DNA of 53,309 nucleotides, counting the filler, from Dirinaria sp. TL-2023a (Eukaryota), in the NCBI GenBank assembly GCA_051941275.1. It is 2 parts of 2 records of this genome, joined end to end, with 100 filler letters (N's around TTAATTAATTAA, not from the genome) between each part and the next. Parts side by side here need not be neighbours in the genome. Positions count along the whole stretch, not along the records: positions 1 to 26,628 come from JAVEBF010000159.1; 1 more part is not named here. The stretch is one strand, 5' to 3'. A program made the position numbers and the translations under genes. Of the stretch, positions 12,734 to 47,509 are shown in pieces. Position 1 is the first letter of the stretch. Each line of letters starts with the position of its first letter. The notes under the pieces are model-generated. The model did no database searches, was not told where the DNA came from, and worked only from the letters and a program-made list of their open reading frames with translations.

Positions 12734-15700
12734 ATGGCAGATTTGAGTCGCCAATCGGCTCGCGAAATTATTGAAGATATCATGATTTCGCATGGCGGAA
12801 TCACTGCAGAAGATCGGGCAGTCACAAAGCCATCCGTGCTACGGTCGCTAGCTAGTGTTCGTGAAAGCCTTGCTAAAGCTACCACTACGTAAGTTGACCC
12901 AAGGCCATCGGCCCTTCTCACCGTCTTACGACATAGGCTATCGAACCAGCTTTACTCCAAAGACACCAGATTCGTGTATGAATTAATCCAAAACGCTGAG
13001 GACAATACCTACAACATCTGCAAAGCGAGGGGAGTCAGTCCAGGGCTCATATTCACGGTCGCGCCAGACCTTATTATAATTGATTCCAATGAGGACGGAT
13101 TCACAGAGAACGATGTTCGAGCATTATGCGAGCTCGGTGGTAGTACTAAAACAGCCAGTGGTGGGTTCATTGGTGAAAAAGGTATTGGATTCAAGTCAGT
13201 CTTCAAAATTGCCTCCAGGGTTCGAATTCAGTCTGGACCGTTCTGCTTTGCTTTTGAGTATGGCAAGGATGATGACGGTCTTGGGATGGTGACTCCTATT
13301 AATGATGAGCATGAGAAACTACCAAAGAAAGTTCGAACCCGGTTCACGCTAACTCTGAATGGACATGTAAGCTTCGACGATTTGGTGCATGAATTCAATG
13401 GCCTCCCGGATACCTTATTGCTCTTTCTAACCAAGCTCAAAAGAATCACCATCCGAGTACCAAAAGTGGCTGGGCTCTCAAACACAGTCTACACGTATAC
13501 CTATGATGAAACCCTGCAGATCGGAACGGTAGTCAAAAGCGAGTCGATGGGCGAGTCTTCAAAAGTGACGTCCAGGCAATACTATGTCGAACGTCGAGTG
13601 ATAAAAGATCTTCCTGCAGACAAGGCTCGTCCTCATACCAGCGGAGCCGAAGTGGTCCTGGCTTTCCCAGTCAACGAAGAGAGCCGTCCTATAATTGAGC
13701 AGCAGCACGTGTTCGCGTTTGTGCCCATGCGAAGAGTAGGGTTCAATGTAAGTGGTTCACTGTTTATACCGAACAGTAGGGCTTAGACTTTCTAGTTTCA
13801 AATTCAATCGGATTTCGTAGTTCAAGCGAGTCGAGAAGATATCTTAGACTCGGCCTGGAATAACGCCCTTTTGGATGGCGTTGCAGCGACTTTTCGACAG
13901 GCGGTGCTCCACTTTAGGAGGAATCACCCACTCGAATTCTCTTGGATCCGATTTTTACCGAGCGACCACATTCCTGAACCTTTTTGGGCACGTCTTCGAG
14001 GGAAAATCCTGGAATACCTAAGGCATGAGGAAGTGTTACAGACTTGGAATGCCGATCGCTTAGCAAGAGCTGCGGAAATAAGATTGGTACCTCCGGATTT
14101 CCTTGACGCGAACGGTAAACCACTTTTCAGCAGCTTGGCCGGTACTCTGCATTGCATCTCCTCAGACTACTCGAGAGATGATACGGATCTCCTTACGGCG
14201 CTTGGTGTTCAGACACTCAGTAGTCACGAATTTTGTCATAGACTATCTTTCGATCTTGATTTCGACGTATCACGGTTCAAATCAAACGCGCAGTCCGATT
14301 TTGATTGGAACACTCGAACTGCAAGAAAGCTGCTCGCAATTTCAGAATCTGATTTTGCAATGATTCAAGAAATCAACTTAATACCTCTACAGGACGGGAC
14401 TTGGACTTCTGCCAGTACTGCAGAGCTATATTTCCCAGAGTACCAGTCCGTTCCTGTCCCCTCCGACATTGGCTTACGCCTTGTTGATAAGGACTTTTTG
14501 TCAAATGCTGCTAGGAGAGAGCTATACTATGTACTTGGGGTCGAAGACTGTTTGCCCAATCTAGTCATATCAAAGATACGTCGCAGATATAATACAGATT
14601 TCGCCAAACTCGGGGCCTCTGTTTCACATATACGATGGCTTTACCATTTCCTACCCGAGGAACAACGTGGTTTGGATCGACTCATTCCCCTCTTTGCCCA
14701 CGATGGAGTCCCAACATATCGAGCCCGTAAAACAATAGCGGGAGAAAGGAGAGTCTGTGATTTGTACTTTGAAACAGAAGACGAATTTGGGGTTAAAGAG
14801 CTTTGCCGCGAGCAATCGTCAATCTTCCCGAAGAAAGGAGTGACTCAGTATGAAGTTTACTTCATCAACGAGGCATACCTCAATGCCGTGGAACCCATGG
14901 TCCTTGTACATGGAATGTCATGGCTCAACTGGCTGGAAGATTCGGCAGGCGTTCGCCGCATCCCTCGACTTGTGAGATCAGTCGACTCTACAAAAATATC
15001 GAACCTATTTTCTTGGCTGGTCTCGAATCGACCCGGGCAAGTCGTTGAGACACTTCATGCGTACTGGTATTCATACAAAGATCAGATGAAGCCTGAGATT
15101 ATCAAATTTCTACGTGAAGCCAAGGTCCTCTGGAGACAGGGAAAGGAGATTGCTCTTGGGGCAACTTGGATACCAACGCCTGAGCTTGTCAAGATCTGCG
15201 AAGACTATGGGTCGGTCCGAAAAGGGCGCTTTTCCCATTCCAGTGTGGTCGCAGAAATGCCCTTTTTAGATATTCGCACGAGGTTAAATCCGCAAAATCA
15301 GGGTGAATGGAGGTTTCTAGCTCAATTTGGTGTAAGCTTCGACGCGAATACGTTCTTTTATCTCGAGGCGTTGCGTGTTCTCCGCACCGATTCAAGATTA
15401 ACCACGGGCTCATTTCCCAAAAAGTTGGGAAGGGTATACGAAGCAATTGAAAAGAGCAGCAATTCTTCCAATTATGAGAAAATCTGGTAGGTCTAGGGTC
15501 ACAACCCACAGATCCGTATTTAACGGTAGCAGTGAACTTTTTGCACGCGAAAATCTTATACTGGCACCATCGCAGCACAATTCTATGTGGATATGGGTAC
15601 CCGTCAAAGACTGTTTTTGGGAAGCCCCAGCTTTCATTGACAATCGGAACGTGCTTGGATCACATGAGCAATATCAAAATAATCAGTCTATAAAGCATCT

Positions 15701-18327
15701 CTTTAACGGCATTTTGGCCATTCCAGACAGCAACAGTCAACACTACATTGAACAACTTACACATTGGAAAGACAGAGAAACAGTGGGAGATGTTGTAGAG
15801 GTTTATCATCATCTACTACAGGCTACGAAAGAAGGGATGAAATCAGCAGATATCCGGTAAGTCACTCGGTACAACTATCTCGGAACATAGGTGACATTTT
15901 GTGCATCAAAGCCAATCATTCGAGGCCAAAAAGCTTGTTTATTTGCCAAGTCAGACAAGGTGGGTCTCTCCGTCTTCGTGTATATGGACAAAGTCGACAA
16001 GAATCGTTAGCAAGAAAGCTATAGCCGCAGAATTTCCTGAGCTGCAGGACTTTTTCATTTGTGTACTTGGAGTACAGGAACCAGACAAGTCCACATATAT
16101 CATGGAACTTGCAACTCTGTGTCGGGAGGAATCTGCTCCCTCTATTGCCAAGGTTAAGTCATTATTACGAGACATCAATTCGTGGCAACCCTTAGAAAAC
16201 GACTTAGACATACTCAAAACTCTGGACGCATTCCCAGTGAAAGATCCGACAGGCACATTGCGACTGCGGTGTATCGAACACACTTTTGTGCTTTTCGATC
16301 GACTGAGCCATGCAGAGACTTTCAAGGGCAAGGTAGCTTGGCTTGACTTCGACATAGAAGAAATGCGATCTTTACGACATCTTATCAAGGTTCTCCATTT
16401 GGATGCCAGATACACGTCACGACTAGTCAATGAGGAGACTCGTGCTCAAGATGCGATTTTGGACCCATCTCTAAGCGAAGAACTGCGGTATCGAGCTCAT
16501 GCAATCTTTCGGTGTGTTTGCTACCGCGAAGCTGCCAATTGCATGATGAAACTAACGAACTGCTAGATGTGCTGTACACTATCAAGATAGTGTGTCAACG
16601 AAGCACGGAGACTCCCTTTATCAGCGACTTCAGCGAGCAGATGTACGCCTTACCAACAGCATTTCCAGTACAACTAAGCTTATTCTGAGCGGGACGACAA
16701 TTGCAAGCGCAAGCACTATAAGTAGATTGCACCTTCAAGATGAGGGCGATCAGATCAGTCTTTATGTTCCTCGGAACGAGAGAGAAAAAGAGCTCTCTTA
16801 TCTCACGAAGGTTCCAGAGCGGATGATGGCCTACTTCGGAATCAAAGACAGAGGCGCCGCGAAGGTTTTTGGAGATGTCGTGAGATCCTCCCGCGCAGTG
16901 CTGGATGACGTGCTAGAAAGTCATGGTATCATGCGCTTGCCGGGACTCATGTCAGAGTCGGCGCTTGGAAACGAGAACAATATGCTTTCCCATGTCCCAA
17001 ATTCGTCTTCAAGGCCAGAATCGGAAACCGAGGTGAGGGGTGTCTTCAGTGCCTTTGGTGCCTCAGCTGCAGACACTCTCTTAGATCTTCCCGCAGGGAC
17101 GAAGAGATCAAGTGAACGAGCGCGATCAACATCGTTTGGTCTCGTGTCAGAGCCGATGTCTGAGAACGAGGAAAAGATGCCTTCCTATGTCCCAAAGTCA
17201 TCTCAAAGGTCAGACACCGAAACTGGGATAAAATTTGGTTTTGGTGTCCCAATCGCAAAGACTCGCTTCGGCCTTCCTATGCCTGACAAAGAGGACAAGA
17301 TATCTTCCCATGTCCCAAAGTCATCTTCAGGGCCAGGAACGGATATCAGCGTGGTTTCTTTATGGGGTGCCCAAGCTTCAAAGATTCTCTTAGATCTCCC
17401 TGCGGACACGAAGAGGTCAAACGAACGAGCACGATCCGCGTCTCCGGCACGGGCTACGGGACTGGGAGGCGTCTTTGGTGTGGAGCAGCCCTCACAACCG
17501 AAGGCAGACCGCACCAATGAGCGGTATAGAGCCCTTTTGGATCATGTGATCAAGAGCGCGCACTATGAAAGTGATCAAGTGGGCTTCTCGAATGAGATTT
17601 TTGTACCAGATGACGTCTTTGGTACTCGTTCGACAAACCAAATGCTCCACGACATGAAAATGGGTGCTGCGGGAGAGCTATTCGTACGGACACTTCCGGC
17701 ACGCTTTTAAGGTCTTATCTGACGCCCTTGTGCAGGTATTTGAGTTCCTTCTAGATATCCTTTCCCCATCGCTCTCACGCGCCAATTGGAGGAGCAAGAT
17801 TAGAAAGCATGTCTGCGTGCACGAAAAATACAGCGATATGACTAGCTATGAAGGAACCGAAAAAGCTGATATAATTTACGACGATGTCGATGGCAAATTC
17901 ACAGATTATCTGATCCGACACGACAAACTCGACCAAGATATCTGGATCGACCAGAAACCGAGGTATTTTCTCGAGGTCAAAACGACGATGCAGAAGTGTG
18001 AAACGCGATTCCTCATGAGCAAGGCCCAGGTGCAGAGAGTAAGTTGACAACCGTTTTATAGTCCCACAACCATGTCAGCAACATCAGCAATATCAAAAGC
18101 ATTGGACTGCCGCTGACAGCTATTGGGGGTTATAGATGGAGCGAATGGTCATCCCTCCGGGAGAATCTACAGCAGAAGTCTACGTCATAGCGCGGGTCTC
18201 GAACCTCGGACAAAAGGGCATTGATCTGGACTTCATCGTGGATCCCGAGACTCAGAGGCGTAACAAACAGCTACGGATCGAGGCAGAATCCTACAGAATC
18301 CTCCATTCGTGCGCGTTGCCTGAGTAA
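12734..18327 (+). CDS. Large sacsin/NO VEIN-like protein: N-terminal GHKL (HATPase_c-like) ATPase plus C-terminal DUF3883/NOV_C-like PD-(D/E)xK nuclease
   Basis: ATG 12734, intron 12889-12936, then LYSKDTRFVYELIQNAEDN, DSNEDGFTENDVRALC..GGSTK, IGEKGIGFKSVF (GHKL motifs of the sacsin/NOV type). Further introns near 13748, 15487, 15857, 16512, 17683 and 18039. C-terminal MGAAGELFVFE ... EKADIIY ... YFLEVKTT ... RFLMSKAQ is a restriction-fold motif. Confidence 0.88.
16968..17440 (+). repeat. Intragenic degenerate triplication in the linker of the NOV-like gene
   Basis: SHVPNSSS / SYVPKSSQ / SHVPKSSS at ~16970, ~17165 and ~17290; LLDLPAGTKRSSERARS (~17078) versus LLDLPADTKRSNERARS (~17387). Also visible at the DNA level. 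Confidence 0.8.
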
Positions 18328-20234
18328 AATCTCTTCACACTCCACACTCACTCTGAATATCCAAGATTTCTAGAGAAGAAGTGATGTATTTGCTCCTCGA
18401 GGTTTTGGGACAGGGAATCCTGAGCTTAGAGATTATCACCAGGCCAAGAGAATGGATATGCTTTTTCTCCCACGACTTCCTGCCACAACGTCACGCACTT
18501 GTATTCACCCCCTTTCTTGGTTCACCTACTTTCTTGTTCGGGTTAATGTTGAAATATTCACTCCACCAAAATTGTCTTTGCAAACGTCAAATAATCTGTT
18601 TGTCTAAGATGCATCAAATTTAAAGAGTCAAACATGTCATCGATTCGAAAGAATCTGCGCTACGAAAATTGCGTTTGCGAAAAATTGTCGATCTCAACAA
18701 GGAAACATCGTCTCTTCGAGAGAGACGGCGAAGTAATTCATCTTCATCGCAAATTCAAGTTTCAATTTGGATATCGATCGAGCATTTTGAAAAGGAAATG
18801 TTTCACATTTCTCTCTCCTAAATTGATGCTGCATATTAAATAGTCAGAAGCATCGGATGGTTTTGGTGGTAAAGACATTTTGGTAGGGTGAATATTTTAA
18901 CTCTAACCCTAACAAGAGAGTAGGTGAACCGAGAAAGGGGGTGAATAGGAGTAAGATATCTTATCAACAAGAAGAAGAATGAAGATAAAGAAAGAAAACC
19001 CAAAGATTATAAATCCAGCGTTACAGACTACCGAACTTTTTTCGACACGAGAAACAAGGTAGGAATAGCGTCGTGGTGGTGATGCTAAATTTTTTTTTGT
19101 AGGTGGTACTTACAGTGGGTCTTCTATTACATCCCTTTTTTTTTTCTTTTTTGTGAGGGAGGGGATGGCTATCAAAGAGAGAAAAGACCCATACGAAAGG
19201 AACACTACATTGAATTTTATTCAACTCTACTTCATACTTCATACTTCATACGAGTACCGTTTACTTATCACCAGATTAGTTTCCTATCCATGAAAATTTA
19301 TTTCCTCCTCCTCCTATTACCTTCCCTAATTATTTTCGCCTCGAAAGTCTGAGCAGTTGGTGGCTGCTTTTTGTTGAGGATACTGCCACGCTCTACGGTC
19401 TATGGTGCTGCGAGTGAGGGATGGGATTCGCTGAGGACTGAGGCTGGGTTGAAATGCAGATTTTTTTATATATAGAATTGTATTGTGTTCCCTCCAGCCA
19501 AGGGGTATTTATTATCCAAGATCGGAAAAAAAATGGGGCACGCTTCTGCTGCGGATGATATATGAATTGACTGAAGGTAGAGAATAGCGAAATAGAGTCA
19601 AAAATCATGAGCAGCTGGAGCTAATAGTAAGGAGTTTTTTTTTTTTTTTCTGCGGTATCAGTAGCTGGGAGGTGAAACGGAAAAACCTCAAAAGAGAGAG
19701 AGAAAAAGGTTTTTTCGGGTTTCGAAAACAGAAGGGGGGTATGATTATGAATTTTCTGGATATATGCTTCGAAGGCGTGATTAATCGATCCTAAAAGAAA
19801 AAAGAACAAAAAAAAGGAAGAGAAAATGTCGATTTTCCGTGTTGCTGGACGAGGTATACGAGATGATAAATCTGTGTGAATGCTCAACGACTTATATAAT
19901 CAGTAAAATAACACGTTTGCGCTGATTTTATGAAAAGTTCTGATGTTTCTCTACTGCGTTTTGAAGAGGAGGATTGGTGCACCGTTCTTGTCACTTCATT
20001 TCAAGCCTACAATGTAATCAAAAGATAACGGAAAACCAATCCAAATACTCCAACGACGATGGGAGTAAGCCGAGTTACTAACGCTCACTCTTCAAAAAGA
20101 GTATCGTCAGATTTAGGAAGTATTTATGAGGTCAATTGCACCTTATCTATGTATGTGTCTGTATGTGTGTGATCAATTAACTGCCTAACATCTATAAGAA
20201 AGAACGTGTGTGGGTACCTTAGGCGGTTCACCTA

Positions 20235-20336
20235 CCCGGGGACTGCCTATTACACGGGACTACATATTACCCGGGGCCTACGGTACCTATTATCCGGGGG
20301 TTACCGCCCGAGGACTGCCTTCCGAGAACTGCCATC
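20235..20336. repeat. Degenerate short tandem repeat (CCGGGGACTGCCTATTA-like, ~6 copies)
   Basis: ccggggactgcctatta, cacgggactacatatta, cccggggcctacggtacctatta, tccgggggttaccg, cccgaggactgcctt and ccgagaactgccat occur in succession. Confidence 0.6.
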
Positions 20337-21119
20337 CAAATCAAATCTAACCGCTTTCGTCAAACTATACTTGGCATTTTCTTAGTGGTGGGGTTCCGGT
20401 TTTACAGGTATATATTTTTCAGTCAAAGGTAACTATACATCCTTCCTCCTAGCTGAACGAGATAAAAAAAAAGTATGGGCGGCGGCCCTGGATATATCCT
20501 ACCTTATTATTGCTTAGGCGACTAAATGTACCGTACCCCGCAACGAACTAAGGTCAGGTACGAGGGGCACCTAGGGTAAGGATAAGATTAAGGTGAGGCG
20601 CCCAAACCTAACCAACGTAGAAGTCCGACAGATGAGTGAAAGGAACCCATATTGGTTTAGCGCGGATCCCCTCAGCCCTATCCCAAGGTTGGTACTTTAG
20701 AATGTCTTCATGAAAGAGAGTCGATGCTCAGACCAGCTCCTGCTGAACGGAGATGATGCGCACATACTTTGGGGGAAAGGAAACCATAGGTCGCGGAACT
20801 AGTGTTCAGAATGCAGCCGCAAGCTCATCGTGTTCTTCTTTCAATGCACAGACATCAAGTTTCTTGGTAGTGGGATCTTTCTGGATTTCAAGGTGTTGCA
20901 AGGACAACGGCTGTACCTGCATTTCGCTACCGCCTGTAAAGTAGTGGGTATGTTGTCTCAAAAAACCCTGCGCTGCGCTCGCTGAGCTTTGCTCTTAGGT
21001 CATATGACTGGCGATGATAGGTGTCAAATACTATAAATCTAGGCGTAGAATCGTGACATGAGATCCAATCTCGACTCTCGTAAGTATGTGCGCTAGATTG
21101 GGACTGAACTAGTTGTATA

Positions 21120-21448
21120 TTACGCTGTCCAAGGCTCCAAATCCCAGAGAACGATTGTTGTTTCAGACGGCACTGGTGTTGCGAGCGCATGAAGTTTTCT
21201 GTTTGCCAAAGGCAAAGCCTTAAATCTTACATAGTCGTCATACCGCTGAGCAGCATGAGGCTGTAGAGGTCTCGTCGACTTCCCTCTTCTAATGGCCATA
21301 TTTCGGATAAACGTGCGTTGATTATTTCATTTGGCAGGTCCTTGAAGGTCCTGACTCTGGATACCGTATCTTCTGCACGAGCAGAGATCTTGCTGTCTGA
21401 CGGTTCGCGAAGGGGTCTGTGTTTGTAGTTATTGTTGTTGATTTCCAT
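21120..21448 (-). pseudogene. Truncated F-box-like gene relic
   Basis: TFKDLPNEIINARLSEIW...RDLYSLMLLS followed after a break by NRKLHALATPVPSETTIVLWD, matching the usual fungal F-box pattern (LP.EI...L..L.LVSR.LH.LA.P.LY). An early stop follows at 21120-21122. Confidence 0.45.
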
Positions 21449-22580
21449 TTTGGTCAGTCTTGTAAGTAAGACTTCTCAAGATTTGACCTGATTGAGTATC
21501 CGGTCAGATTTTCGTGGTTAGGAAGCAGCTTGCGCTGATAGATGCGTTCTATCAGTGGAATGTTGGCTCATAACGCCAGCGATGTTCCAAATAAACGGTG
21601 ATAGGCCGAATACAACACATTCAAATACCTACAGAAGCCATTGTGAGATGCACTGAGTTGTATTCACCACATTACACTCCATCAACACCCACGTAAGCGT
21701 ACGTTTGGGAGTGATATTGGGTGATCGGAAGTTTAAAGCTGCAATCGAAATTGGCAGGTCTGTTGATTCTTGAAAAAGGCAGAGTTTCCGTTATCCATGC
21801 GACCAAGGCGTATATTGTTAGATGCCGGTTAGCGGAATGGTCCGATTTGAGTAATGTTTCTTTTGCAACCTTTGATAGCATGTAAATTTGGTTCAATCGG
21901 TAAAAATTCGTGAATGGCAGTCCCAGTCACACGAGTATCAGTGAGCTTGTGATGTTGATTAGGAATCCCAATTGACTCAATCAATGTCTATGAGATGGAC
22001 TAGTTCCGAATATCCGTTCAAAGGCCATAGTTGACGACATCCTGATGGCACCAAAACACCTCTGCAATGACAGATCATCTTGCTTTCAAAGAAGCAGTAG
22101 TCGTTTTGGGGCTCTTATCAAGTCTAGAACCTCGACACCGGTATCTCTGATTTTCTTTGCGTCTTGCAGCTAGTCCACATATGGGTTCTCGAAGCGGAGA
22201 GTTGTCAGGTATTGGACTGCAGCATGCGTTGATAAGACAATTCTTTAGCGAGTATGTCACGAAGGCTGAATATGCTAGCTTGACGTCAAAGATAGTCGAA
22301 GCTATTGGTAACGGCGTGGAGGAAAGATTAGTGTAATATCTAGTGAAGTCGCTCTTGGCCCCGATTGGTATGTCTCCATGCACCATCACTATGTTGTTAG
22401 GGGAGTATAGAAATAGAATAAAAAACTCAAGCTAGTCACGGCCCTTCGCGGATCGGATATAGCGGCGTGATGGCTTCAGACGAGGAGTCTATAAAACCGG
22501 AGGCATCGCCGGCCTCAGAATTCCAGTCTGGAAGAAGAGATAAGAGAACATACCAAGAATTTGCAAGTGAAAGGCTAGGC

Positions 22581-23074
22581 ATGCCATGTGCGTCGAAGGA
22601 TTATTACCTCAGCACATCAGGAACTTCATCAGTAATGGATCCCATGTACCAGCTTCAGCTTCAAACTGACGTGACGTTCTAGTGTCGAAGGATATAGAAG
22701 CGATACGCACGGTGGTTCTGGCCTATCAAGATGCCATGAATGCCTCGAGCACCGACAGAGTAATGGCACTATATGCCCCTGACGGGGTTATCATGCCGCA
22801 GCACTCCCAAGCCAGAATCGGCGCCGATGCAGTCAGAGAGGCTTACGAAGACACCTTTTCCGCTATCGCGTTCCAAGTGAGATTCAATGTCGAGGAGATC
22901 GTTCCCACCAACGCTGATTGGGCCTTTGCACGCACGACATCGTTTGGAAGGACGAAGACTAAGGCAGGCGGTGGAGGGCCGGAAGCAAATCAAGAGCTGA
23001 TCGTGTTCCAGAAGATCGGTGGCGAATGGAAGATCTCACGGTTTTGCTTCTGCACCACCAATCCGGCACAGTAG
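22581..23074 (+). CDS. NTF2-like / SnoaL-like (DUF4440/YybH-type) protein
   Basis: ATG CCA T, intron 22588-22682 (GTGCGT...CTGAC...CTAG), then TG TCG AAG gives MPLSKDIEAIRTVVLAYQDAMNASSTDRVMALYAPDGVIMPQHS...WAFART...EANQELIVFQKIGGEWKISRFCF. Confidence 0.85.
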
Positions 23075-37935: not shown

Positions 37936-38090
37936 TGACCCCGCAATCTAAACCGAACATGAGTTGAAAGCATAGTACGGGCGAAGGACTCGTACAATAG
38001 CCCTGTGAAGATAGCCCTGTGAAGAAGAAAACCATCGACACAAACTTCTACTAACATATAAGAGACTTCGATTTACTGAGTTGTGGAGCA

Positions 38091-39331
38091 ATGGCTCCAT
38101 CTGCCATTGACCCAGTCTTCGTCGATGTGGTACAGCCTAAGACGGATACCTTGAAACTTCCTTTGGAGTCCAGGAAGAGGCTTGAAAAGGCAGGTATAGA
38201 CTTATCCAATGGGTATCCATATCGCCCCGCCAGGCCACTGTATCTGCAAGACGTCGAAAAGCTTCGTAGTGGATTCCGTGAGCATAGAGATCCAGGCGCT
38301 CGAGCCGATCGAGGCAAGTCGAGTTTGTTTGCTGCAGCGGAGAAAGTCATCGACCTGACTGCTCATATTGGGACGGAGGTTGTGGGGTTGCAGCTGAAGG
38401 ACTTGACCGCTCAGCAAAAGGACGAGCTAGGCTTGCTCATTGCCGAGCGCAGCGTGGTTTTTTTCCGCGATCAAGACATTTCGCCGCAACAACAGAGAGA
38501 GCTCGGAGAGTGGTATGGCGAAATTGAGGTCCATGTAGGTTGCGAATTTCTGAATTTCCCGTGCGTGGTTGACAGATGGGCATAAAGCCACAAGTGCCAC
38601 AAGTCCCTGGAGTCCCCGGTGTGACTGTTATCTGGCCAGAGCTTCAAGCGACCGAAGCCAAAGTGACCAATTTCCGAAACCCCGGAGGCGCGGCCAGATG
38701 GCATACAGATCTGGTGCACGAGAAACAGCCGGCAGGGGTGACTCACTTACATAACGACACAGTACCTGCTATCGGTGGCGATACGCTGTGGGCAAGCGGA
38801 TACGCCGCCTACGAGAAGCTATCACCCGATTTCCGCAAGATAATTGACGGCAAGCAAGCGGTGTATCGCTCAGCTCATCCGTATCTAGATCGCAATGATC
38901 CCACTGCAGGACCCAAGTACTTGGAGCGTGTTCATCCGTTGGTGAGGGTTCACCCAGCCACAGGATGGAAGGCACTTTGGGTCAACCGCGCAATGACTGT
39001 TCGCATCGTGGGTCTTGACAAAGCCGAGAGCGACGTCATTCTAGGATACCTTTACGATGTTTTCGAGAAGAATGTCGATATTCAGGTTCGTTTCCGCTGG
39101 ACTCCCCGGACAAGTGCGTTATGGGATAACAGGTGAGCAATCATCTCCGTATCCGTACTGGATGTAGCAATGACGTGTTGCAGGATCACCATCCACAATG
39201 CGAGCTGGGACTATGAAGGCTCCACGCCAAGGCACGGGACAAGAGTGACAGCACTGGCAGAAGTTCCTTTCTTTGATGAGCATGCTCCCACAAGGCGGCA
39301 AGCCTTGGGCATTGCTGGCAGTGATGATTGA
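38091..39331 (+). CDS. TauD/TfdA family Fe(II)/2-oxoglutarate-dependent sulfonate dioxygenase (JLP1-like), 3 exons
   Basis: DLTAHIGTEVVGLQL, LLIAERSVVFFRDQ, WHTDLVHE (HxD), GGDTLWASGY, HPLVRVHPATGWKALWVN, WDNR|ITIHNA, RHGTRVT; stop at 39329-39331. Confidence 0.95.
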
Positions 39332-40786: not shown

Positions 40787-42379
40787 TTACGGCGCAGTCC
40801 ATCCGCTCACTACTTCAATACCCCTTTCCCCATCTTGCTCTGTCGGCGTACAAGCCCAGCTGCAACCTCTTCTAAGAAGCGGAAATATGGACGTGCCGAG
40901 ACATGACATACTGGCCGCTTCTGACCTAGAGGGACCAAGCGGGTAAATCGCAAGCGTACAACGCCACCATTCCACCCACTCAGTGCGTGGTATAAGATAT
41001 TCTTTGTTGCAGACGGTGCACTTTTGGCCACGATAAGATTTTATATACCAGGCTCGTTTCAACAGTTCATCAATATTAGAAGGGCGAGATGTTGGAAGGA
41101 AAAAGGGCAGCTGAGATAGATTCATGGAGGCATACGCGGAGCGTAGAGCAAGCTCGAGCAAGGAGGGTACCTTTGTCCTTTCACTCAACGGTGGTTCCAG
41201 CATCTTTGCTTTTTGTGGCTGAAAATTCAAGGTACTTGACGGGGCCGGGGTCCAACCCTGTACAGAGGATCCGTCAGTAGAAAGGTAAGCAACGGACGTT
41301 CGGCACAAAGCATGAAGGCCACTTTGTGGACTGTTCTCGAAAATGGTTCCAGCACTATTCAGGTTTTGCGGCTGGATAAAAGGGTTCAGCGCAGCAGAGA
41401 TCCAACCCAGGCGGTGAGCAAACAGATCCAAGATCTCAAAAGGCAGCCAGCGCAAGTTGTTATTACTCAGGTTGAGCTCCTCCAGCCGCCGAAGACGAGA
41501 CAAAGCGGGTGATATCTCCACTATATCGTTTGCACGGGCGGATAATATTGTTAAGTGATCTAATTCGTAGAGTTCTCCTGGTAATACGGTAAGCTCATTG
41601 CCCGCCAAGTACAGCTCAATAGGCCTGTAGATCTCGCCGTAGTCTTCGTCTTGGGATGCCGGGGTTGTTCGCGCCAGGAAGCGCAAAGCTTGTAGTGTCG
41701 AGGGCAGCAGATGTCGCATACTGAGGCCTGAGAGGTCGAGAACGCGCTGACTGGAATCTGCATAGGTTTCGGTTAAAATCAATGCTCTTTTCTGTGCTCG
41801 GTGGAACGCTTCTAGATCCTGGGGCTGCTGCTGCCAATAGGGGAAAATTGGGCCATGCTGTAGTCCAGGGTCCTCAAAGTACTGCGCTGCTCGTTTGAGG
41901 AGAGAGGTTTCCCCATGTTCCTTTCCTTCCCTGGGCGGAATGGACATTGGGCTCAAGCAACCGGATGCAGCATTGTATTCACCATTGGAGAGCCCTTTTT
42001 CCTGGCGTGGCTCCTCGTCCATCTCTTCAGTCTCATCGCTTCCCATCCATACTCCACTATCCAGATCACGCCGAAAAGGACCCCTTCGGCGGCGTTCTGG
42101 ACGATAATGTTGTTCTAGCGATACGCCCTTTCCACTGTGGTTGTACCAAGGCCCACGTCGTTGACGTTTGAGATTAGAGTTGGGCTGAATATAGTTTTCC
42201 ACCGTCGCGGGTGAATCGTCACTCGAAAAAATGGGCGGATCGCTCGAGTCGGCAACGAACTCATCGATGTCGCGCTTCCTACTTGTGTTCCTTCGCAGAG
42301 GCCATGGTACCGACAGTGGGAGGCTTGGCTCGAACTCGTCCGTGGGACATTGTGATCTGGACATGCCTTCGTCCTCCAT
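40787..42379 (-). CDS. Conserved fungal leucine-rich repeat protein
   Basis: Intronless ORF with LRR units LYLAGNELTVLPGELYELDHLTILSARANDIVEISPALSRLRRLEELNLSNNNLRWLP, N-terminal SSDPPIFSSDD and DSGVWMGSD, C-terminal VPSLLELAL, CTVC and RRGCSWAC. Likely ATG at 42379 (MEDEG). Confidence 0.85.
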   Translation of the reverse strand: MEDEGMSRSQCPTDEFEPSLPLSVPWPLRRNTSRKRDIDEFVADSSDPPIFSSDDSPATVENYIQPNSNLKRQRRGPWYNHSGKGVSLEQHYRPERRRRGPFRRDLDSGVWMGSDETEEMDEEPRQEKGLSNGEYNAASGCLSPMSIPPREGKEHGETSLLKRAAQYFEDPGLQHGPIFPYWQQQPQDLEAFHRAQKRALILTETYADSSQRVLDLSGLSMRHLLPSTLQALRFLARTTPASQDEDYGEIYRPIELYLAGNELTVLPGELYELDHLTILSARANDIVEISPALSRLRRLEELNLSNNNLRWLPFEILDLFAHRLGWISAALNPFIQPQNLNSAGTIFENSPQSGLHALCRTSVAYLSTDGSSVQGWTPAPSSTLNFQPQKAKMLEPPLSERTKVPSLLELALRSAYASMNLSQLPFFLPTSRPSNIDELLKRAWYIKSYRGQKCTVCNKEYLIPRTEWVEWWRCTLAIYPLGPSRSEAASMSCLGTSIFPLLRRGCSWACTPTEQDGERGIEVVSGWTAP

Positions 42380-43460
42380 AATTCGTATCGAAATCTTAGA
42401 CTTTCCAGTGGGCAAATACGTAGCACCGAATGTCCTGTATGACGGAATTCAATTCGGGCGTCACGCGTATTCCATGTGGCAGACGCGTTCAACGAAAAAA
42501 AACGACAGCTGACGGGACGAACCGACAATTAGCTTCAAGGTTTGTTTTCGCTTTCTCATGCCACGAATCCCTTTTTACCTGGGGATTATACACATTGATT
42601 TCTCTGCTGTGGCAGGGTTCTACTTTCAAGACGAGACTTTGTAAACAAGATGATGATGAATGGACTCACTGTAGAAGCGTCACAGCAAGAATATTGGGTG
42701 CATTACCAACGTTAAAGGTGAGATACCCTAACCCTAAGGTAAGGTGTCGAGCGTACCTTAAGGTAAGGTCTTGCTCCCACTGGCGCACCCTCTTGTCGCT
42801 GGAAGCGGCAATAGTTACCTCGAGTAAAACATCACCCGACCCTGTTGATGCAACCTACCATAGGGAAAACGCGGTACCTTACCTTATCTGACTGGAGATC
42901 TCCTAAATGGCCTTTGAACAATCGCCTAGGTGGACGATCCCGCAGTAACTCGTACACAGTGCAGCACTGTTCCACTTGGTCCACGATAATGTCTGCCTTT
43001 GTCGCAAATGCGTCAAATGTGAAGAATGAATTGCTCAATACTGGAATTCAGTTGTCTTCAATTACGAGATGGTGGGGAAGGAAGTCGGTATTACTGAAGC
43101 TCGGAAAAATCGGACCTTAGAGATTAATCGCAGCCGTGCAAGAAATTCCAGCTTTCAGCCTCATCTGCAAGAGACCCATGGGCCATGGCGATCGGGCTCC
43201 CGTGAGGAATAGTTGTCGATCACTTTCCTAAAAGAGGTCCATGGCAAGTCCCCACGTTTGATAGCGTTACATGGATATTATTATTAATAAGTTCGTCGCG
43301 CAAGGCTGAGCGGTTCAGCTGCAATTCCGATTATGGAGTTAATAACTCGCACCGCTCAAGGTGGAGGTTCACACCATTCCACTGCTCTTTGGCGCAGAGA
43401 GATGCTGGGCATCACTCGTCAAATTATCCAGTCTGCCCTGTCCAGAGACCCAATCACAGA

Positions 43461-46400
43461 ATGGACCAAGGCCAGGTGAATGGAAAGACTAGGACCGATC
43501 AAAGCTCTATTCAAGCAATACTTCGTGAAGGATTTGTCGGGATCGCTCCTGGTGACAAAGCTTGGGAAAATACTGAAGTCGAGTCTGGAATTCTATTGGC
43601 CTCTATTGCGAGAATCATTGCTGATTGAGTTAAAGCATTGTCGCTGTCCCTGCAGTAGGCGCTCATCCGGAAAGAACTTGGATACCTTATCTTTCACAGC
43701 GTCCGAGAGAGCGCACGCAGGCCCTTTACAACAAGACCCTGTCCACTGCCCCTCCAACAGCTCGCTCCTCAAAATCGCTCATCTACGATCTGTCGTCGAG
43801 ACGTAGTGCTGAGAGTTCTCCCGCTGAACCTCCCCATACTCCTTTAGACATTGACGAAGATGGCCGCGACATGTCGCATGGGCCATGGTTAACGAATGAT
43901 CTTCGGAAAAAGGTACCACAGGCCAGGATCCTTCTGTATCACCATGGCGAATTGGAAGAGGGCACTACAATACAAACGTTGGCAGATCGTTTATTGGAAA
44001 ATCTACGCCAAGCACGGAAAATAGAGTTCAAAACTGAATCGTCAGATTCATTCTGTCGGCCCATCTTCTTTATCTGCCACAGCACAGGGGGCCTTGTTGC
44101 CAAAAAGGCTTTGAACATAGCTAATGAGGAAGGTGCTCTGACGCCCATCGCTGATGACTGTCACGGTATGACGTTCATAGCTACTCCGCACCAAGGATCT
44201 GCCTACCTATCATCGAAAGAATTCTGGCCGAGTATTCGAGAAGTCATGCGTTTACACTCTGTGATTCCCGACAGCTTGCAGCGACAACTACGCTTCGAAA
44301 GCCCCGAGTTGCTTGACATGGCGGAGAAATTCAAGAAATACTCTACGGACTTGCGCATCACTACATACTATGAGACCACTGACTCGGACTTGGCTTTCAC
44401 GCCGGCGAATGATGATGGGCCAAGATCGTACCACGTCCCTATTGTCTCCGTGGCGTCTGCCATTATGGAGTTGGAACATGAATCAGAGATTCCTCTTTCC
44501 AGTGACCACGTAGGCTGCGCGACTTTCATAGGAGATACTGAGGCTCAGGAAACCTTCATCTCGGAGCTTGAAGTGGCCGCCCGCTCAGCAGCGACTTTAT
44601 CGAAAGTAAAGCATTACAGCATAGATCTGGAAGAGGAAGTGAGGGTTGAGGTTAATGGGTTTTTTGAGGATAACACGTCGTCCGTGAAACTTTGGACCGC
44701 AAGGCCATCACTCGCAGATTTTCTGAAGAGTAGCCCAAAGGAACTCCTAAAAGATCGCCTCAAGCAATCAAAGGAGCTTATCAAAGCCCCTGCGGCTAAG
44801 AAGGACACACAAAGTAACAAGGGGAAGGAAATTTCAGCTTTGACAGTAGCCGAAGAGCCGAAGTTGAAACCCCCCGAGAAGCTTCGTGGGAAATATGGCA
44901 ATGCTCCACGGAACAAGCAAATGCTACAGCGTCCAGCTCCTCTTATCAAGTCTATGTCTAGCAGCCGATTAGCGAAAGACCCCGGCAATGAGCAGAACAA
45001 TGGAAGCCGATTAGAAACACAGAAAACTGCCCCAGATGATACGTCGACTGTTGCAACTGAAGGCCGTTCTGTACCTATTATCACATTCTCCCCAGAAAAC
45101 CCGCTCAAGGAGCCACGCAGGCACTCGATTGCTCCTGCCGATCCTGGACCGCAGCTTCCAGCAATGAATAGACTCAAATTGACATGGGTGCATATTCCGT
45201 ATACCCACCCTGGCTGGGTTCCCTCTGTACTGGATCGATTCTTCCAGGGAACAGAAGCGAATCCATATTCGGAATTTCTTAAAGAAGAACACTGGGCTTC
45301 AAATCACAATCACGGAAGACATGCGGCACCTCATGCTAAATACGTGAACTCCACTTTCATCAATCCTAGCAAAGAATCAAACAAATTTGCAGTATATGTA
45401 AGTATGCTTAACGCATGTTAGAGGACACCAGCTGACTGTACCGGTCTAAGCTTCAATATGTACGTAAGCAGTCTAAGTCTTCGTGCATTGATCCGAAGCT
45501 GACCGTAATCTCCAGTTACACTGGGACACGTACAGGCAACTGTTAGTAAGACGTCTCACAATCAGACGACGCATGAACCAACGACGTGTAAGACCAATTC
45601 GTGAAGACATCAAAGATTCGAAATCACTAGAAGCCAAGATGATTTGGAAATACCTGGGAGCGGAGCCGCCATTTCACTGCCGGAGGACGTTGGATCAATT
45701 TGGATATCCAAATTTGAGATCGTGCGAAGCCCGAGATGATGATCAGATGATTTGGAAGAGAACGAAACCGAAAGCTAAGATCTCCGCACGGTCAAGTAAG
45801 AAAACCGGATCAAGTACACATGAACCTTATGACTTTACATCTTCTACCGATTTCGAAAAAAAGCACAGCGCCCATCATAGCCCTTTTGACAGGGAGGAAG
45901 ACGACAATGATGAGTCATTACAGAAGAAATTAGAAGAAATCAAAAACAGTACCCAAGAAGGCAACGTGCTCATGGTTGATCAGCTGTGGCTCTGGGCTTT
46001 GGACGACAAGACTATCGTGACCTTTTTTCCCAGAAAGGAGGGCTTCGCGTCCGAGGGCAGGCTGTCCCAGCAGGGCGATCTACACAACGATATCTATAAC
46101 GAAGTCAACTCTGGCCTGACGGTGGTACCAGACGCGCATATGTTCGCTGCACTCATAGTGCAACGTGCAGTAACAATACTGTTAGATCGCACTGCGCACC
46201 GACATCTCCAAGTTCTCCGCATCTATGAAGAATCACTCAGTATCCTTGTATGTTTTCTTCCATTGCGTCGCCTGATCGTCTCACTGACGTGTACAGATTG
46301 AAAGGATGACAAGATCCTATAAGTCCTTCCGAAAAGAAGGCTTCAGCGTCAGGCCCGATGCCTACTACCGCAAACAAAATGGTGAGCCAATGACAACAGG

Positions 46401-47509
46401 GGAGAAGCAGGAGAAGGACTTGAGCGTCGAACGTCAAAGCAAAGAAGATTTTTCGTCTTTGTTGGAGCTAAGAGACATCTCTGATGAGCTCCACACTATC
46501 AAGAAGCTATTCCAGGAGCAAAGAGATGCTCTAGTAGACATGGCCGTACACTACCTAGACGCCGAGGGGACTGGTGAGAAGCAGAATGCAGAGCAGGACC
46601 GGAAGATTTTCATCCAGCGAGCAAGAGAAGCGCAGAAGCACAGCGCAAATGGACTGGATAATCTTGTGAAAGCCGAACGCAGTCTCAACTCCTTTGAGAG
46701 GAGCGTTTCGGACATGATTGAGAGCGCAGAAAACACCGAGAAGGCTGTAGGACCGCTCTCCGCCGCTTACATCGGCTTGACTAACGGTGATCTAGTACAG
46801 CAACCTCCTGGACATCAAGCAAAAGCAGGCCAGCGTGGACGAGTCCCGATTGGCCAGGGCTCAAATGGATGCCACCGCTGCACAAGGCCGAGCCATCATG
46901 GTCTTTACCCTGTTCACCATCATATTTGTACGTCTCGGGTTCCGTTCTTGATCTTGCATTATTCCGTTGACCCAATGCAGCTTCCCCTATCTTTCTTCAC
47001 ATCAGTCTTTGGCATGAACGTCCGAGAATGGAGTGATCCGAACCAGCCACCAGCGCTCCGTCGTATTGTTTATTTCATAGGTCTGTTACTCCAGCCCTCG
47101 GGTGAGCTTCGGCTCTTAAATTGACTGATTGGCAGGTCCGATCTCAGTTGGGGTCATCTTCATCGCGCTGACCTTGGCTTTCAGCATTAGCATCCGCGCC
47201 TTTGCGGTCGCGGCCCGGAAAATTGTTGTTGGCGTGTCACATGACCTCTATCACCTGATTTCTCAGCCGCTGTCTAAAGCCTCCAGGCCTGCCCATACAA
47301 TGTATGAAAGGACTCGAATACCACTCCTTCTTGATGGTATCGCAGATCGCTATCTGCGCCACAAAGACCAGGATTTCGGGAACGACCATGGGATTTGGAA
47401 TTCTTACGCTCTTCCGCAACATAAATCAGCCCGAGACGTGACCTACGGGAATGCCCGGACATCAAGCTCGAGGAGGCGTTCATTTTTTAAATATTTTGAT
47501 AAGGTTTGA
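43461..47509 (+). CDS. Alpha/beta-hydrolase (DUF676/SesB-like) fused to a CorA-like Mg2+ transporter domain, multi-exon
   Basis: ATG 43461, intron 43583-43635, VDIVAVPAVGAHPERTW ... WLTNDL ... RPIFFICHSTGGLVAKKAL ... FIATPHQG ... SDH. Then YLHWDT, RRTLDQFGY, VLMVDQLWLW, LLELRDISDELHTI, LLDIKQKQAS, AIMVFTLFTIIFLPLSFFTSVFGMN (CorA GMN motif) and a second TM helix. Confidence 0.88.

Follow-up and report, generated by a model that had tools for sequence, protein, structure and literature searches.

A spliced Tiamat-like gene of the lichen-forming fungus Dirinaria sp. TL-2023a joins an Hsp90-like ATPase to a putative restriction-fold nuclease domain

Bacillus cereus and other prokaryotes defend themselves against phages with Tiamat (TmtA), a system made up of one gene (Millman et al. 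2022, via 10.64898/2026.09.30.754977). According to the latter preprint, the B. cereus protein hydrolyses ATP, cleaves single-stranded DNA (ssDNA) and nicks double-stranded DNA (dsDNA), and its defence against phages needs residue E44. In the same source, Tiamat proteins are described as having an ATPase extension (the 'transducer') that gives an arginine to the gamma-phosphate, a core composed of a DUF3684-type region, TPR-like folds, a 'Fold B' and a metalloprotease-like fold, and a nuclease end that is predicted to be a constitutive dimer interface with extra C-terminal strands; the effector can come from an adjacent helicase-nuclease (10.64898/2026.09.30.754977). In this study, we analysed a gene that occupies positions 12734..18327 on the plus strand of a 53,309-nt stretch of DNA from Dirinaria sp. 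TL-2023a (the whole stretch is called the window below). Dirinaria is a lichen-forming genus of the Caliciaceae (Lecanoromycetes), and by family and architecture the product of the gene very probably belongs, as a fungal representative, to the Tiamat (TmtA)/NO VEIN lineage of GHL ATPases.

Tiamat homologues are reported to be abundant in eukaryotes, with some Ascomycota sequences being like the prokaryotic ones, and Tiamat, Tiamat-like and sacsin proteins are placed on one side of the GHL tree (10.64898/2026.09.30.754977, the tree in the Figure 5 legend). The plant protein NO VEIN (NOV) is related to Tiamat and affects plant-virus interaction, NOV knock-down altering virus responses (10.64898/2026.09.30.755639). 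Fungal Tiamat-like proteins, including het-6/HET fusions (Types VII-A/B), are covered in the two preprints, both dated 1 October 2026 (10.64898/2026.09.30.754977; 10.64898/2026.09.30.755639). According to the second one, the fungal homologues have no NOV N-terminal region, are 'sparsely detected', carry HET in some cases, stand well apart from plant and animal NOV in the tree, and may stem from independent prokaryotic transfers (10.64898/2026.09.30.755639). Our full-text literature searches found fungal members catalogued and, in the texts they reached, no experiment on one. The remark made in an initial annotation of this DNA, that such proteins have no characterised function in fungi, stands within these searches, although fungal Tiamat-like proteins as such are already catalogued in the October 2026 preprints.

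The Dirinaria protein has the same order of parts as Tiamat, namely an Hsp90-like ATPase with the catalytic Glu, a long core, a flexible linker and a C-terminal PD-(D/E)xK-type nuclease domain. At the profile level, homology between the two takes in the ATPase, the greater part of the core and also the nuclease, and a nuclease-end homodimer is predicted for both. Unlike Tiamat, the Dirinaria gene is eukaryotic and has seven introns, its product is 21-34% identical to prokaryotic relatives, the nuclease domain falls below the Pfam NOV_C cut-off, and no helicase, methylase or restriction genes adjoin the locus. With NO VEIN and its animal homologues the protein has in common the Tiamat-like half, described there as an ATPase, a solenoid core and a NOV_C nuclease with conserved active-site residues (10.64898/2026.09.30.754977; 10.64898/2026.09.30.755639), whereas NOV alone has, ahead of the ATPase, an extended N-terminal stretch that is conserved, specific to eukaryotes and marked by three motifs (10.64898/2026.09.30.755639). 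The Dirinaria ATPase, unlike that of NO VEIN, begins about 50 aa from the N-terminus; with the N-box already at aa 67 and a start Met that corresponds to M1 of the family, there is no room for such a region. Sacsin, for its part, carries UBL, DnaJ and HEPN domains and has terminal domains other than a restriction fold. The Dirinaria ATPase belongs to the sacsin-type GHKL branch (Pfam SACS), but the protein differs from sacsin in having one SACS region and not several, no other sacsin domains by Pfam, and a restriction-fold C-terminus. The fungal Tiamat-like proteins surveyed in the preprints are of the same family and, as here, without the NOV N-terminal region; the Dirinaria copy comes from a lichen-forming Lecanoromycete. 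It has the common chassis of the HET-fused relatives P0017 and P0018, without their HET domain. Judged by its sequence, the protein is neither a full NO VEIN, nor a sacsin, nor a HET fusion. The explanation that we favour as a whole, with a probability of roughly 0.6, is that of an intact fungal Tiamat-type ATPase-nuclease which is ATP-gated and has a conflict-type role.

Stop-to-stop reading of the plus strand between 12.7 and 18.3 kb gave long open frames that change frame at short intervals, and every frame change falls on one canonical short intron. From the frames and splice sites, the gene has eight exons, 12734-12888, 12937-13747, 13796-15486, 15530-15856, 15912-16511, 16567-17683, 17736-18038 and 18136-18327 (stop TAA), and seven introns, all of them GT-AG and 43-97 nt long, several with CTAAC-like branch sites. 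With the introns removed, the coding sequence (CDS) is 5196 nt long and encodes 1731 aa, the sole stop being the terminal one. The ATG at 12734 and the TAA ending at 18327 are the exact limits of the CDS and coincide with the gene limits claimed in the initial annotation; the five motifs quoted there are all found in this one spliced plus-strand reading. M1 and the N-terminal helix align with the fungal family. At intron 3 there is a tandem TAG/CAG acceptor (15529/15532), and the site 3 nt downstream would yield a protein of 1730 aa. No second copy of the gene was found within the window by tblastn. The gene is intact, bears introns and comes from a lichen-forming ascomycete.

A reading without any working fungal gene, in which this would be a decaying pseudogene, a faulty assembly or contaminating bacterial DNA within a metagenome-assembled genome (MAG), is very improbable. 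It could be suspected from the MAG label of the source record and from the deposited annotation, which departs from our model at three sites. However, removal of seven canonical GT-AG introns joins 1731 codons into one reading frame that no stop interrupts, every one of the closest relatives is fungal, prokaryotic relatives do not exceed 34% identity in the N-terminal part, the flanking genes are fungal (including Zn2Cys6 and a fungal-specific transcription-factor domain), and the active-site positions are all intact. On these grounds bacterial contamination and a pseudogene were rejected, being largely refuted.

The corresponding public protein, P0001 (1705 aa; 'MAG: hypothetical protein Q9191_001815 [Dirinaria sp. 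TL-2023a]'), was 100% identical to the exon 3 query, and over its whole length it is 98.5% identical to our gene model with 26 gapped positions at three sites. At the first, a 51-nt stretch at 15945..15995 (plus strand; 17 aa, RWVSPSSCIWTKSTRIV) was removed as an intron in the deposited model and should be coding. It holds the W..PS.C.W block, whose conservation across the family is at least 90%; in an alignment with 21 homologues, 19 rows show this block, and P0001 and P0019 are the two that lack it. At the second, 24 nt at 16567..16590 (plus strand; 8 aa, the CAVHYQDS block) were lost through the use of a later acceptor. This block matches the conserved A-x-H-[YF] block of the family, and in the same alignment the nearest relative, P0019, has RCAVHYQNS where our model has RCAVHYQDS. 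The third difference is the one residue at the tandem TAG/CAG acceptor. Because the family alignment shows both blocks to be conserved, we regard the losses as model errors: P0001 appears to be mis-spliced at two sites and to lack two family-conserved blocks, a point to heed whenever profiles or structures are derived from public gene models of fungi.

The N-terminal module (aa 1-433; 12734..14128, plus strand) was assigned by profiles and fold as an Hsp90-like GHKL ATPase with a middle ('transducer'-like) domain. Exon 2 matches Pfam SACS, the sacsin domain, with an expectation value (E) of 9.9e-11; this is a single match at aa 58-145 of P0001, and no further Pfam families were found on the whole of P0001 at E<=0.01. 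The PADLOC TmtA models (PDLC03964-03972) match as well: PDLC03972 matches P0001 with E 3.2e-75 and 252 bits, aa 28-559 aligning to profile positions 22-542 of 1302, eight more TmtA models match P0001, and TmtA models match all of the 10 fungal relatives tried. Three motifs of the plus strand mark the ATP-binding site, namely the N-box ELIQNAEDN (aa 67; 12980-13006), DSNEDGF (aa 101; 13082-13102) and GEKGIGFKSVF (aa 131; 13172-13204). The motifs singled out in the initial annotation are above chance, falling inside the SACS and TmtA matches just given and being invariant or at least 90% conserved among 60 homologues. When the first 433 residues were aligned with those of 39 fungal and 8 prokaryotic relatives (48 sequences with the query), N71, D74, F107, G131, K133, G136, F137, K138 and F141 were invariant, and E67, N103, E104, G106 and R335 were at least 90% conserved. 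E67 and N71 supply the catalytic Glu and the Mg-binding Asn of the N-box, and the glycine-rich boxes are intact too. By its position in the motif, and without alignment to the B. cereus sequence, E67 would be the equivalent of B. cereus E44, and R335 is a candidate for the arginine that the transducer gives to the gamma-phosphate.

An AlphaFold2 model of aa 1-433, built from the same 48-sequence alignment, had a predicted local distance difference test score (pLDDT) of 88.2 and a predicted TM-score (pTM) of 0.86. Searched against the PDB with Foldseek, it matched at least 500 chains at E<=1e-3, and the matches listed were all of the Hsp90 family (HtpG, Hsp90, Hsc82, TRAP1, GRP94; best E 2.9e-11, probability 1.00). 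The alignments are 400-480 columns long, so that the match spans both the N-terminal ATPase and the middle domain. The TM-scores of the model against Hsp90-family chains are low, 0.37-0.47, which we put down to the orientation of the domains relative to each other. A PDB search with the sequence of the whole protein returned two TRAP1 rows of no significance (E 0.6-0.95).

The central core (aa ~434-1296; 14129..16870, plus strand) is homologous to the Tiamat core by hhalign. A profile of 60 fungal sequences aligned to an archaeal Tiamat open reading frame (ORF), L002, over 1136 columns (probability 100, E 4.1e-75) that span residues 9-1270 of P0001, and an alignment of this length means that the homology covers most of the core and extends beyond the ATPase. 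No Pfam families were found on exons 3-6. A phmmer search with exon 3 against 1.84 billion cluster representatives gave 1462 matches at E<=1e-3, 315 of them at E<=1e-30. The core is followed by a serine-rich linker of low conservation (16871..17638, plus strand), recognised from the family consensus and from composition: Ser is its commonest residue (34 of 230), and the consensus of 60 homologues is almost wholly 'x' across it. In Tiamat proteins a disordered tether is described at this position (10.64898/2026.09.30.754977). The description of the region between the two modules as more than 1000 aa of helical sequence proved roughly right in length, there being about 1120 aa, but about 250 aa of these are serine-rich linker. 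The linker contains direct repeats, three of 86 nt (starting at 16943, 17138 and 17261) and two of 71 nt (17057 and 17366), whose copies have diverged to 63-79% identity; Tandem Repeats Finder reported no repeats in the linker. Within 16943-17436 these repeats encode serine-rich peptide repeats.

The C-terminal domain (from aa ~1553; 17639..18324, plus strand, split by the introns at 17684-17735 and 18039-18135) was assigned by profiles and fold as a restriction-fold nuclease domain of a divergent NOV_C type. Its two motifs, both on the plus strand, are GAAGE (aa 1561; 17663-17677) and LEVKTT (aa 1646; 17970-17987), and the conserved residues include E1565 (17675-17677), D1617 (17883-17885), E1647 (17973-17975), K1649 (17979-17981) and Q1665 (18027-18029). 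Without exception, the 60 fungal homologues share both G and the E of GAAGE, a W, an S, a D, the E and K of EVK, and a Q. Two Asp are candidate metal ligands, D1617, which is invariant, and D1612, which is at least 90% conserved. The PADLOC model PDLC03971 matches the C-terminal 225-aa piece with E 1.7e-7, residues 48-216 lying on the last ~140 profile positions. By hhalign the fungal profile and the archaeal NOV_C region gave probability 89 and E 2.1e-6, the ExK strand, the SK.Q helix and the subsequent strands being paired. A hidden Markov model (HMM) made from fungal C-termini matches the prokaryotic ORFs L003 (9.3e-7) and L002 (7.3e-5).

In the AlphaFold2 model of the C-terminal domain (pLDDT 88.2, pTM 0.87), the Glu sits on a long helix, the Asp beside a strand and ExK on the next strand. 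The top rows for this model in VIA-align are I-Ssp6803I (Z 6.0), Hjc (5.9, 5.7 and 5.3), NhoI (5.4) and the fusellovirus nuclease D212 (5.3), with SwaI and the RecU-like PBP-related factor A (4.9) further down; the nuclease matches span Z 4.7-6.0. Going by entry titles and folds, 11 of the 12 top rows are what we take to be restriction enzymes, Holliday-junction resolvases and related nucleases. The fold proposed for the C-terminus in the initial annotation is in line with this model, which is restriction-endonuclease-like with best matches at Z <=6, and profile and fold evidence together bear out the proposed union of a GHKL (Hsp90/sacsin-type) ATPase with a restriction-fold (NOV_C/DUF3883-type) nuclease. 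As for the 'one-gene defence module' that the gene was said to resemble, the TmtA profiles and hhalign give that module a name, Tiamat (TmtA).

When the C-terminal 225 aa were modelled as two copies, the score was 0.32, as against 0.00 for the best of three controls. In calibration, the mark was reached by 21 of 30 solved one-chain pairs and none of 23 single chains from microbes, and by 17 of 29 solved pairs and none of 30 single chains from eukaryotes. The runs share at least 82% of contacts, the partner pLDDT is at least 76, and the predicted interface sets residues 206-220 of the piece, i.e. its last ~20 residues, against residues 152-157. A C-terminal homodimer is favoured by the model; resemblance to nuclease dimers of known structure may account for the pass.

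A scan of prokaryotes with one genome per species gave 577 pattern matches. Of these, 522 proved to be relatives, with identities of 27-34% over the first 350-560 residues for the best ones. Nine prokaryotic Tiamat-like ORFs were scanned with Pfam, and three of these combine SACS with a NOV_C match that clears the cut-off, namely L002 from a Halobacteria MAG, L003 from an uncultured bacterium and L080 from Calothrix.

Among the prokaryotic loci, three Tiamat-like genes (L004:2515-6081, L005:2367-5939 and L010:2313-5936) are nuclease-less and lie directly after a HEPN_Swt1-SNF2-Helicase_C gene of about 1190-1208 aa. These HEPN_Swt1-SNF2 neighbours agree with the remark in the preprint that a helicase-nuclease encoded next door can provide the effector. 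Another Tiamat-like ORF, from Saprospiraceae and 1995 aa long (L008:5944-11928), ends in an SF1 helicase (AAA_11/AAA_12, UvrD-like) and not in a nuclease.

The query made from the C-terminus matched 60 proteins of 937-2984 aa at E<=1e-3. All named matches are fungal and nearly all are from Pezizomycotina, and family members include proteins of Xylaria, Aspergillus, Colletotrichum and Podospora. Pfam domain scans covered 11 proteins and then 29 of 59 relatives. HET was found in two of the 11, P0017 (E 7e-28) and P0018 (E 5e-24), both of which retain the nuclease-like domain, while P0001 gave no Pfam match to HET. One of the 11, P0013, has R3H and RRM fused to the same chassis, and one of the 29, a relative from Aspergillus fumigatus, has an N-terminal thioesterase. 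PF27504 is listed as a precomputed domain on most relatives, and our own Pfam scan did not report it.

A quick maximum-likelihood tree was made from the first ~650 residues of 77 fungal proteins, with no fungal row left out and with SH-aLRT (Shimodaira-Hasegawa-like approximate likelihood ratio test) values as the only support; it was rooted on six prokaryotic ORFs, an outgroup too small to test transfer from prokaryotes to fungi. The Dirinaria protein is paired, with support 100, with a protein of Heterodermia aff. obscurata, a member of the Caliciales, the same order as Dirinaria, and the two are 55% identical over 599 columns. This pair is nested in an 11-row clade (support 96) with other lichen fungi, and the clade also holds what we take, at class level, to be Dothideomycetes. 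Separate paralogue lineages occur inside Xylaria arbuscula, Monosporascus sp. MC13-8B and Colletotrichum fioriniae. A strictly conserved single-copy orthologue, which the initial annotation had named as the opposite case, does not fit this tree, in which the family is multi-copy in several fungi. Such a modular, paralogue-rich pattern is typical of conflict systems and is no proof of one.

By analogy with B. cereus Tiamat and GHL clamps (10.64898/2026.09.30.754977), the protein would work as a homodimer joined through its nuclease end. On binding ATP, the N-terminal ATPase gates would shut on a ligand that the core holds, and the ATP cycle would license the tethered, metal-dependent nuclease to cut nucleic acid, possibly as in the bacterial enzyme, by ssDNA cleavage and dsDNA nicking (10.64898/2026.09.30.754977). 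We lean slightly towards an ATP-gated nuclease mechanism of this kind. The role would be to restrict foreign nucleic acid such as that of mycoviruses or transposons, or else to cause damage when triggered by non-self. A conflict role is inferred because of the homology, the turnover of paralogues and the existence of sister proteins that add HET on the same chassis; a defence or non-self role is put forward as a tentative proposal, at somewhat under even odds.

Several results weigh against the favoured explanation, some touching the nuclease and others the role. With Pfam NOV_C, the C-terminal 225 aa scored 18.9 bits against a cut-off of 22.1, and the relatives with NOV_C (3 of 11 and 2 of 29 scanned fungal proteins) are all below the cut-off as well. 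The fungal C-terminal HMM had no match to L080, the cyanobacterial ORF with Pfam NOV_C. Foldseek with the C-terminal model against the PDB gave no row at E<=1e-3, its weak top rows being HincII, EcoRV, SwaI and Hjc, and in VIA-align Z values below 8 are rated as middling by the tool, the best here being 6.0. The dimer score barely reaches the mark, with a calibration that is weaker for eukaryotes. As to the role, the Dirinaria protein groups with other Lecanoromycetes, which vertical descent fits as well as the conflict model does; there is no defence island around the gene, the nearest recognisable genes being a Zn2Cys6 factor and a SnoaL-like gene; and Arabidopsis NOV (EMB2597), which has developmental roles, is embryo-essential, nuclear and broadly expressed (10.64898/2026.09.30.754977).

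The scores for the C-terminus bear on the idea of a catalytically silent, sacsin-like scaffold or chaperone, whose ATPase would power the handling of clients and whose C-terminus would bind nucleic acid or dimerise without cutting. Consistent with it, the best Pfam match of the protein is the sacsin domain, the C-terminal domain is under the NOV_C cut-off and serves as the predicted dimer interface, and pseudo-enzymes occur in the lineage, since Tiamat cores hold a pseudo-protease fold (10.64898/2026.09.30.754977). However, the E, D, ExK and Q that are invariant in 60 of 60 fungal homologues would be hard to explain if the domain were inert, the repeated SRR regions and other hallmarks of sacsin were not found by Pfam, and the bacterial homologue is an active DNase (10.64898/2026.09.30.754977). 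We regard a silent scaffold as improbable. The nuclease assignment is made because profile, residues and fold agree, with no single score deciding, and at moderate fold scores the C-terminus is best described as a probable divergent NOV_C domain related to the Tiamat nuclease.

The tree and the surroundings of the gene bear on a different idea, in which the same protein was exapted for a housekeeping role in the nucleus or in RNA or DNA metabolism (repair, chromatin, RNA processing), like NO VEIN of Arabidopsis. The properties of NOV given above would suit such a role, as would the spread of the family in Pezizomycotina (the 60 matches at E<=1e-3 to the C-terminal query), the grouping of the Dirinaria copy with other lichen fungi, the one relative with nucleic-acid-binding RRM and R3H domains, and the ordinary neighbouring genes. 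Speaking against it, the fungal proteins lack the N-terminal hallmark region of NOV from plants and animals and are 'sparsely detected' in fungi (10.64898/2026.09.30.755639), unlike an essential gene; moreover, there are paralogue lineages and the effector is swapped to HET. Even the nearest relative, from the same order, is just 55% identical over the 599 N-terminal columns, a value for which no housekeeping gene served as a yardstick. An exapted housekeeping role appears rather unlikely to us.

Returning to the ATP-gated ATPase-nuclease with a conflict-type role, a wider proposal may be made, which we hold more loosely than the defence role itself: fungal Tiamat-type proteins might be working innate-immune or allorecognition nucleases, in which an ATP-gated clamp senses mycoviral, transposon or non-self material and answers with nucleic-acid cleavage, while HET-fused paralogues couple the sensor to cell death. 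If this were true, Tiamat would be an immune module that derives from prokaryotes and works in fungi, in this case in a lichen symbiont that constantly touches foreign cells. No new kind of system is revealed by the Dirinaria gene. It provides a lichen-fungus example, with both active sites conserved, in a family that links anti-phage defence, plant NO VEIN and human sacsin, and the clean gene model with named catalytic residues is a basis for ATPase and nuclease assays and for knock-outs.

The ~4.3 kb directly downstream of the gene (18328-22600) are gene-poor. No ORFs of at least 130 aa were found in this stretch, and its GC content is 43% (39% at 19-20 kb), compared with 48% for the window. 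The flanking ORFs gave no Pfam families, and one upstream ORF resembles a large cluster of widespread Ascomycota hypothetical proteins. Degradation of the flanks by repeat-induced point mutation (RIP) was considered and is not supported: in the AT-richer stretches TpA/ApT is 0.82-0.85 and (CpA+TpG)/(ApC+GpT) is 1.12-1.19, as judged by the usual RIP thresholds. Ordinary metabolic genes occur within 5-15 kb of the gene, and the genes recognised farther away by Pfam are a Zn2Cys6 transcription factor, a SnoaL-like gene, an LRR ORF, a DUF676 ORF and GDSL/FG-GAP ORFs. The claim that the gene sits in accessory-type DNA is weakly borne out by the flanks without Pfam families and the AT-richer stretch, but the absence of clear RIP and the nearby metabolic genes do not support it. 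The surroundings are unremarkable fungal DNA and speak neither for nor against an 'accessory' region.

Two further observations were made in the window. A TauD-family dioxygenase is split into two adjacent frames (38055-38582 and 38573-39133), the cause being an intron or else a frameshift. In the region 40787-42445 (minus strand) and 43634-47121 (plus strand), the LRR ORF adjoins a 595-aa ORF with a match to DUF676, a putative serine esterase, after which come two more long ORFs in the same direction without a Pfam family; together these could form one large multi-domain gene of a type used in fungal non-self recognition.

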